Virus record (IMG/VR): IMGVR_UViG_2541047828_000005
Location: 1-47,619 of that record
Length of the DNA stretch: 47,619 nt
Source of the DNA: a virus
Taxonomy: Duplodnaviria > Heunggongvirae > Uroviricota > Caudoviricetes
Direction: 5' to 3' (one strand)
Below are positions 3,388 through 4,188 of this stretch, in pieces. The notes under the pieces are model-generated. The model saw only the letters and a program-made list of their open reading frames with translations. It was not told the DNA's origin and made no database searches. Made by a program: the position numbers and the translations under genes. Each line of letters opens with the position of its first letter. Within the stretch, counting starts at the first letter, position 1.

Positions 3388-4188
3388 TTAAGCGGCGTCG
3401 GTGAATTCAAATAAAAAACCGGCTTGCGCCGGCTCTCTCATCTTTCTGTCTACCCATGCTGATATCGATGGTGGGTGCACCTTTTCAATAGCTGCGCGAA
3501 GTACAGCTGTACGTGCCAGTTTGTCGGTAATCTCAGGAAATCGCTTCTCTGTCTTCGGTACGTTAACAGCAACATTAGTAGAATCCGCACTGGCGAACGG
3601 ATACATACCAAGAACTCTCACGTCGAGCATTCGAAGACCATGAATTTTCACTTTCAAATTACGATTGATATAAATCTCAGTAAAAACTTCATCCATTCTC
3701 TGTCCCCACCATTTAGAGCGTATGTGCCTGTGTGGGCCGCAGCATCCAATCGCCACCCATTCAAATTTGCCAGAAAGGCGTAAAAGACGTTCAATTGATT
3801 CGTCGGTATGCCAGACCGGAACCGCTTTTGATTTTAGCCAATCAGGAACCAACTCAATCTGCTCGTCGTTTTCTGCCTCTGTCCCTTCGATAACGTCAGG
3901 TATAAGAAACCATTCAATTCTGCTGAACCACTTCCCAACAAAGTCGTAGAATTTTGCTCGTCTCTTACTCCAGTCTACCGGAGTGCCTTTCTTTAATGCT
4001 TTCATCCAGTCGCTAAAAGCACCGTTATCAAGGCGTATATCACAAGGGAACATGGCAATCTTTTTCATCTGCTCTGGTCTGGCAAATGAAACAAAAGCCC
4101 CACCATCACGGTAAAGGGCTTTAATCAGCATATCTGTAGGGGCATGCTCATCACCCCATATTGGGCTGCCGTGAAAGTGGATGGTCAT
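3388..4188 (-). CDS. Hypothetical 266-aa protein with possible TGT-like (tRNA-guanine transglycosylase/DpdA) TIM-barrel motifs
   Basis: Complete ORF; by-eye motif resemblance to Tgt blocks (DNGAFS vs DSGGFQ; VAIGCCG vs AVGGLAVG; KIHGLRMLD...FASADSTN vs MGVGKP...FDCVMPTRN); not verified. Confidence 0.55.
   Translation of the reverse strand: MTIHFHGSPIWGDEHAPTDMLIKALYRDGGAFVSFARPEQMKKIAMFPCDIRLDNGAFSDWMKALKKGTPVDWSKRRAKFYDFVGKWFSRIEWFLIPDVIEGTEAENDEQIELVPDWLKSKAVPVWHTDESIERLLRLSGKFEWVAIGCCGPHRHIRSKWWGQRMDEVFTEIYINRNLKVKIHGLRMLDVRVLGMYPFASADSTNVAVNVPKTEKRFPEITDKLARTAVLRAAIEKVHPPSISAWVDRKMREPAQAGFLFEFTDAA

Follow-up and report, generated by a model that had tools for sequence, protein, structure and literature searches.

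What does the gene at 3388-4188 encode, and what would its product do to the phage DNA? The window, that is, the whole stretch of 47,619 nucleotides that was analysed (positions 1 to 47,619 of the virus record IMGVR_UViG_2541047828_000005), carries at this place a gene for a 266-aa protein that a preliminary description had taken for a possible DpdA-like enzyme of the tRNA-guanine transglycosylase (TGT) fold, and for a candidate DNA hypermodification gene by which the phage could evade restriction. The product is probably a TIM-barrel transglycosylase of the phage DpdA family, compact and without a zinc site, which belongs to the 'DpdA-only' gamma-proteobacterial subgroup and whose mechanism is assigned by homology.

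The gene and its family

3388-4188, minus strand: dpdA-like coding sequence, 266 aa, predicted zinc-less phage DpdA-type DNA guanine transglycosylase

The open reading frame is intact and runs on the minus strand from an ATG at 4188 through 266 codons to a stop at 3388-3390, with a GGGGA sequence located 6-10 nt 5' of the ATG. Its dN/dS against orthologues is 0.13-0.4, a range that rests on few substitutions. The allele was found in 82 of 5426 complete E. coli genomes, compared with 1861 that have the same integrase gene at ybhC. RefSeq labels all 82 copies 'hypothetical protein', and the copy in phage HK106 bears the same label in GenBank and RefSeq.

The four sequence blocks that had been quoted as resembling TGT (DNGAFS, VAIGCCG, KIHGLRMLD and FASADSTN) were all located in the translation. 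The zinc site is absent, as had been claimed: the only cysteines are C49, C149 and C150, and no CxCxxC was found in the protein. The same motif was absent from all 268 family sequences examined and from the DpdA of phage CAjan; the lack of a zinc site, normal among phage DpdAs, therefore does not count against the assignment.

A search of PHROGs returned a single match, phrog_887 'queuine tRNA-ribosyltransferase' (E 2.2e-102, residues 1-265), the group to which CAjan DpdA was also assigned (E 8.2e-96). We then used an alignment of 132 family members (A2), with 25-76% identity to the 266-aa query, as a profile in HHalign; the probability was 98.7% (E 1.9e-16) against CAjan DpdA and 98.8% (E 4.7e-17, 174 columns) against the alignment of the CAjan family. 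All conserved blocks were in register with those of CAjan DpdA, such that LDNGAFS of the 266-aa protein was paired with LDSGAFS, PVWH with PCFH, VAIGCCG with ITIGGMVG, KIHGLRML with KLHAFGIT, and FASADST with YSCDSSS. The family is large, with 2,224 clusters at 90% identity in one search and 1,780 representatives at 50% identity (E<=1e-3), mostly of 220-270 aa. Judged from these alignments, the quoted blocks form the core that a large family conserves, and their likeness is not due to chance.

Standard annotation misses this family, which the preliminary description had recognised by eye. Single-sequence searches with the 266-aa protein found nothing in Pfam, NCBIfam, PADLOC or the PDB sequences (phmmer); in NCBIfam and in PADLOC, which includes a DpdA model, there was no match at E<=10, and CAjan DpdA itself matched the PADLOC DpdA weakly (E 1.3e-3). 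The residue-by-residue pairing with bacterial TGT that had been proposed was not reproduced, as neither the 266-aa protein nor any of its 132 relatives matched Pfam PF01702, and HHalign detected no similarity between the family profile and the single sequence of E. coli Tgt. The validated CAjan DpdA likewise has no PF01702 match, so this Pfam family is too narrow to recognise phage DpdAs. The profile of the CAjan family had no match in the PDB. Matches of the 43- and 132-sequence profiles to PDB sequences (a spindle-pole component and GCN4) were rejected as chance matches, and a marginal TatD_DNase match of three members, in the Pfam scan of the 132 relatives, was judged TIM-barrel noise. For the MED16 orthologue, an HHpred probability of 99.18% with the T. 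maritima TGT has been reported (PMC8306585).

Predicted fold and active site

An AlphaFold2 model built on a 43-sequence alignment reached a pLDDT of 89.2 and a pTM of 0.86, with eight strands alternating with helices; residues 256-266 had pLDDT <50 and form a disordered C-terminal tail in the model. The 266-aa protein is predicted to be a (beta/alpha)8 barrel closest to TGT/DpdA structures. In a search with the model, 26 viral models in BFVD matched at E<1e-3 and every named one was a 'queuine tRNA-ribosyltransferase'. Foldseek against the PDB ranked generic TIM barrels at the top and was uninformative. The conserved blocks are placed as follows:

4012-4029, minus strand: DNGAFS block, aa 54-59; D54 (nt 4027-4029) at the end of strand 3
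3883-3900, minus strand: PDVIEG block; D98 (nt 3895-3897) after strand 4
3808-3819, minus strand: PVWH block; H127 at the end of strand 5, aligned with the His that is invariant in phage DpdA (PCFH)
3736-3756, minus strand: VAIGCCG block, aa 145-151, at the end of strand 6; GG-type substrate-pocket loop
3574-3648, minus strand: KIHGLRMLD ... FASADSTN; H183 and D202 at the ends of strands 7 and 8, respectively
3622-3648, minus strand: KIHGLRMLD, aa 181-189
3574-3597, minus strand: FASADSTN, aa 198-205; D202 at nt 3583-3585

Conservation was counted in the alignment of 132 members. D54 is kept in 130 of them, as is an aromatic residue (F/Y) at position 58; by analogy with D95 and F99 of the bacterial DpdA, which share the D-x3-F spacing, D54 is the predicted general acid/base and F58 the predicted base-stacking residue. 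D98 is invariant (132/132) and is predicted to be the base-recognition Asp. Position 101 is D or E in 91 of the 132, and HHalign sets the invariant D105 of CAjan opposite this position (E101) and not opposite D98, which puts the register of the strand-4 Asp off by three; either D98 or E101 may be the residue that contacts the base. H127 (131/132) is predicted, again by analogy, to correspond to His181 of bacterial DpdA, which binds the base. G148 is kept in 128 members; positions 149 and 150 are mostly Ser, so that C149 and C150, not being conserved, are not metal ligands. H183 and R186 are kept in 123 and 122 of the 132, respectively. D202, the predicted nucleophile, is present in 120 of the 128 ungapped sequences, and S203 in 119.

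In the HHalign alignment D54, H127 and D202 correspond to D63, H132 and D206 of CAjan DpdA, and the strand-4 Asp to S102/D105. Arguing from the strand positions, the conserved residues lie at or just past the C-terminal ends of strands 3-8, where TIM barrels have their catalytic face. Their order, D-x3-F on strand 3, D on strand 4, H on strand 5 and D on strand 8, parallels D95/F99, D130, H181 and D256 of Salmonella DpdA, where both D95, as general acid/base, and D256, as nucleophile, are essential (PMC10164549). A His/Asp catalytic pair 22 residues apart has been described in Cap10.

Genomic context

1-1284: ybhC of the host E. coli, left end of the window
1419-2489, minus strand: lambda-type int (RefSeq: tyrosine-type recombinase/integrase)
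2467-2685, minus strand: xis (RefSeq: excisionase)
2791-3135, minus strand: phrog_1229 gene, 114 aa
3163-3330: ea8.5-like ORF
3413-3438, minus strand: terminator-like hairpin from a consensus scan, overlapping the last ~17 codons of the dpdA-like gene (the disordered C-terminal tail)
4208-4229, minus strand: terminator-like hairpin and T-run from a consensus scan, ~20 nt 5' of the dpdA-like ATG
4395-5120, minus strand: LprI-like lipoprotein gene (phrog_4675; RefSeq 'lysozyme inhibitor LprI family')
5402-5698: abc2, followed by an ssb-like gene and then erf

The position of ybhC beside a lambda-type int and xis places the prophage at the lambda attachment site. The dpdA-like gene is near int, as had been described, at a distance of ~0.9 kb with xis and two small ORFs between them, and it belongs to the variable 'ea' segment of the early leftward (pL) operon of this lambda-type prophage. 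No homologue of FolE, QueD, QueE, QueC or YhhQ was found in the window by tblastn with the CAjan proteins, and no dpd-like gene was seen among the neighbours (xis, the two small ORFs, the LprI-like gene, abc2, the ssb-like gene and erf). The 'DpdA-only' subgroup is defined by just such an absence of genes for 7-deazaguanine synthesis or uptake.

Between 2400 and 5800 the minus strand holds 12 terminator-like hairpins, against 3.1 +/- 1.6 in shuffled sequences, and most of them are intergenic. This excess fits a string of independently acquired cassettes read via antitermination. The LprI-like gene is directly 5' of the dpdA-like gene, and by eye its product begins with a signal-peptide-like N-terminus. 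A further terminator-like hairpin (4363-4390) follows its stop codon, and the single promoter-like site of the region (4471-4498) lies within its 3' part; the gene appears to be a moron of its own, which HK106 lacks.

The block formed by the phrog_1229 gene, the ea8.5-like ORF, the dpdA-like gene and the LprI-like gene (2698-5392) is 98.8% identical to positions 5300-8005 of a locus from another E. coli strain (L001). There the four genes adjoin a different excisionase gene, of the torI type, and a different integrase gene, which indicates that the block moves between lambdoid prophages as a unit. We considered the phrog_1229 product as a functional partner, for example as the missing amide-forming enzyme, and rejected it: the group was found in 275 phage records, most of which have no dpdA, and HK106 lacks it. 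Its members come mainly from Vibrio, Salmonella, Escherichia and Stx-converting phages, with no linkage to dpdA.

An insertion of ~1,057 bp (6278-7334) interrupts the phage erf and contains an IS5-family transposase ORF at 6334-7302 on the minus strand, which we take to be IS903-like. Set against the uninterrupted relative L001, the two flanks of the insertion have 9 bp in common, which fits a 9-bp target duplication. What is left of the Erf ORF (7324-7806) codes for 160 aa as opposed to 201 aa in HK106, and the prophage may be recombination-defective.

Matches to records of 'DH5alpha' had raised phi80 as a carrier of the dpdA-like gene, which was rejected because the record has csc genes and another prophage context and resembles E. 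coli W. In this record (L008, NZ_CP026085.1, labelled E. coli DH5alpha, 4.83 Mb) the csc sucrose-utilisation genes adjoin the dpdA-bearing prophage; its dpdA match of 99.4% is the same as in E. coli W records, and the strain label looks doubtful.

Fusions and neighbours in relatives

Several relatives carry additional domains or neighbours. A homologue that is 75% identical (P0006) is a 460-aa fusion of DpdA with Dam (PF05869), found in four contigs (in L010-L012 the gene is at 5001-6383). In the three loci examined a Vut_1/YhhQ gene directly precedes it, and wherever the locus is long enough the fusion gene has the same place upstream of int in a prophage early-left operon. In Pectobacterium phage PEAT2, the gene for a homologue of 64% identity overlaps the gene of a VUT/YhhQ transporter. 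Another protein (P0125) joins a DpdA domain to a D12-class DNA adenine methyltransferase (PF02086), and a third (P0197) joins one to QueD/PTPS (PF01242), the latter on a phage-like contig (L009, 2840-3847). We found no mention of these three kinds of fusion in the literature consulted on DpdA.

Fusion to two unrelated families of DNA methyltransferases points to DNA as the substrate, and the QueD fusion together with the YhhQ adjacency implicates 7-deazaguanine precursors. The DpdA-Dam, D12 methyltransferase-DpdA and QueD-DpdA proteins add independent evidence for DNA as the target of the family and for its use of the pathway to queuosine precursors.

Proposed function and alternatives

From the reading frame, family, fold, conservation and context described above, we infer which reaction the enzyme catalyses and on what substrate, when the gene is expressed and what the phage would gain. 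Upon prophage induction the gene would be transcribed in the antiterminated early-left (pL) operon; the terminator-like hairpins suggest that it is read mainly by N-antiterminated pL transcription, after induction. The enzyme would flip selected guanines out of double-stranded DNA, and D202 would attack C1' and displace the guanine, leaving a covalent enzyme-DNA intermediate in a double-displacement reaction in which D54 would serve as general acid/base and D98, H127 and F58 would hold the base. A 7-deazaguanine base from the host FolE-QueD-QueE-QueC pathway (preQ0, possibly the amide ADG) would then resolve the intermediate. Since the window has neither synthesis nor transporter genes, the phage would depend entirely on the 7-deazaguanine pool of E. 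coli. If phages 7-11 and MED16 are a guide, the enzyme would leave a sparse mark on ~0.02-0.13% of G, tens of sites per genome, probably dADG or dPreQ0, and bulk replacement is not expected. Against this proposal stands the lack of a direct sequence link from the window protein to canonical TGT or to bacterial DpdA.

That a single gene could draw on host preQ0 has a precedent. E. coli that expressed the DpdA of phage 9g by itself had dPreQ0 in its plasmid DNA (PMC6884629), and the host pool therefore suffices. Anti-restriction hypermodification is the weak part of the earlier reading, whereas membership of the family is supported: the DpdA identity holds, but relatives carry dADG in traces. 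Phage 7-11 DNA contains 50 +/- 2 dADG per 1e6 nt, ~0.02% of G (PMC6884629), and dADG amounts to ~0.13% of G in MED16, with no noticeable effect on the restriction enzymes tested (PMC8306585).

These low levels bear also on an alternative that we consider unlikely, in which the gene is a genuine DpdA homologue that is silent or nearly so in the prophage, a drifting accessory gene of the lambdoid 'ea' region, either too poorly expressed or too inefficient on the small host preQ0 pool. Consistent with it are the 0.02% of G in 7-11, the failure of the MED16 mark to affect restriction enzymes, the rarity of the allele beside that of its integrase (82 genomes and 1861), the hairpin directly upstream of the gene and the IS-broken erf of the prophage. 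The DpdA-only mycobacteriophage Orion, moreover, showed no modification; its host lacks preQ0 synthesis (PMC6884629), which explains this negative, while E. coli makes preQ0. The intact ORF with every catalytic-type residue kept, and the strong constraint on a family of 1780 clusters at 50% identity, also argue against a drifting gene.

A further idea is distinctly unlikely in our estimate: the DpdA-only enzymes of temperate enterobacterial phages would place a sparse, sequence-specific dADG mark made from host intermediates, and would not serve anti-restriction hypermodification. It stems from the observation that both assayed relatives carry dADG and not dPreQ0, at tens of sites per genome and without general protection from restriction. 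As nothing resembling the amide-forming DpdC is evident, the enzymes would possibly insert ADG itself. The bacterial Dpd restriction-modification system likewise ends in dADG; if the idea is correct, hosts with a Dpd system could take the marked phage for 'self', or the mark could be an epigenetic signal for the phage's own DNA transactions.

It is very unlikely that the protein is a TGT-fold enzyme with a target other than DNA, either a tRNA-guanine transglycosylase or a Cap10-like nucleobase-protein transferase. The tRNA-type names of its matches are automatic transfers, and in its 266 aa it lacks the zinc subdomain (no CxCxxC) and the tRNA-contacting insertions. Neither a Cap9/QueC-like protein nor a CD-NTase is encoded in the window as a partner. 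The fusions to two different DNA methyltransferase families, the homology signal to the DNA-acting DpdA and the modified base in the phage DNA of relatives also speak for DNA. Extremely improbable, finally, is an unrelated TIM barrel (a TatD-like nuclease or a sugar-phosphate enzyme) with TGT-like motifs acquired by convergence, in view of the HHalign match to the DpdA1 family (98.8%, E 5e-17), the PHROG common to validated DpdA, the link to 7-deazaguanine metabolism through the QueD fusion and YhhQ adjacency, and the published HHpred match of the MED16 orthologue to T. maritima TGT.

Comparison with known systems

The window protein differs from several other enzymes. Cap10 of type IV CBASS (PDB 9NTN) acts, together with the QueC-like Cap9, on a 7-deazaguanine that is attached to the N-terminus of a CD-NTase, and both partners are absent from the window. 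Tgt (PF01702) has no detectable sequence match to the window protein, which lacks its zinc site, N-terminal lid and tRNA-contacting insertions; the target of Tgt is tRNA, whereas that of the window protein would be DNA. The bacterial DpdA of Salmonella Montevideo (PDB 7UI4) is 413 aa long, and a CxCx2Cx22H zinc site holds its 128-residue Ins8. In place of Ins8, after strand 8, the model of the 266-aa protein has a loop of ~20 residues, and the protein has no zinc ligands and no NCBIfam or PADLOC match. The activity of the bacterial enzyme was assayed with DpdB and ATP (PMC10164549), and it modifies DNA at a low density similar to that of 7-11 and MED16.

The DpdA1 proteins of CAjan and 9g, validated dPreQ0 / dG+ insertases, share PHROG 887 and the DxGAF, H, GG, H and DS(S/T) blocks with the window protein, and like it they lack CxCxxC; the identity is only ~17%. 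Deletion of dpdA in CAjan abolishes dPreQ0 in the phage DNA (PMC6884629). CAjan DpdA differs in its length of 306 aa with an extra C-terminal region, in the location of its gene beside folE-queD-queE-queC and a transporter gene, and in modifying ~30% of G.

Closer are the DpdA of Salmonella phage 7-11 (59% identical) and that of Pantoea phage MED16 (43% identical), which belong to the same subfamily, have all the conserved blocks and are without the zinc motif. Both phages, like the window, are without genes for preQ0 synthesis; unlike the lambdoid prophage described here, both are virulent.

The closest counterpart is gp29 of HK106 (HK106_029 / YP_007151699), with 98.1% identity to the window protein over all 266 residues. 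Its gene occupies the same place in a lambdoid genome, between the recombination genes and xis-int, and is the only 7-deazaguanine-related gene of that phage; its neighbours differ, with int/xis of the HK97/HK022 type and no phrog_1229 or LprI-like lipoprotein genes. The family was in fact already known, and to read the gene as a dpdA is correct but not new, as this orthologue was listed in 2019: HK106 YP_007151699 stands under 'DpdA', with no other pathway gene, in Supplementary Data 1 of Hutinet et al. (2019), where a third group of 76 phages encodes DpdA only (PMC6884629). Our literature search found no published experimental study of a lambdoid DpdA member. With this gene, questions about DpdA-only phages could be addressed in a lambda-type system of E. 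coli that is open to genetics: what these phages do with host preQ0, why the amide dADG is found in the relatives and whether a mark on ~0.1% of G has a function.
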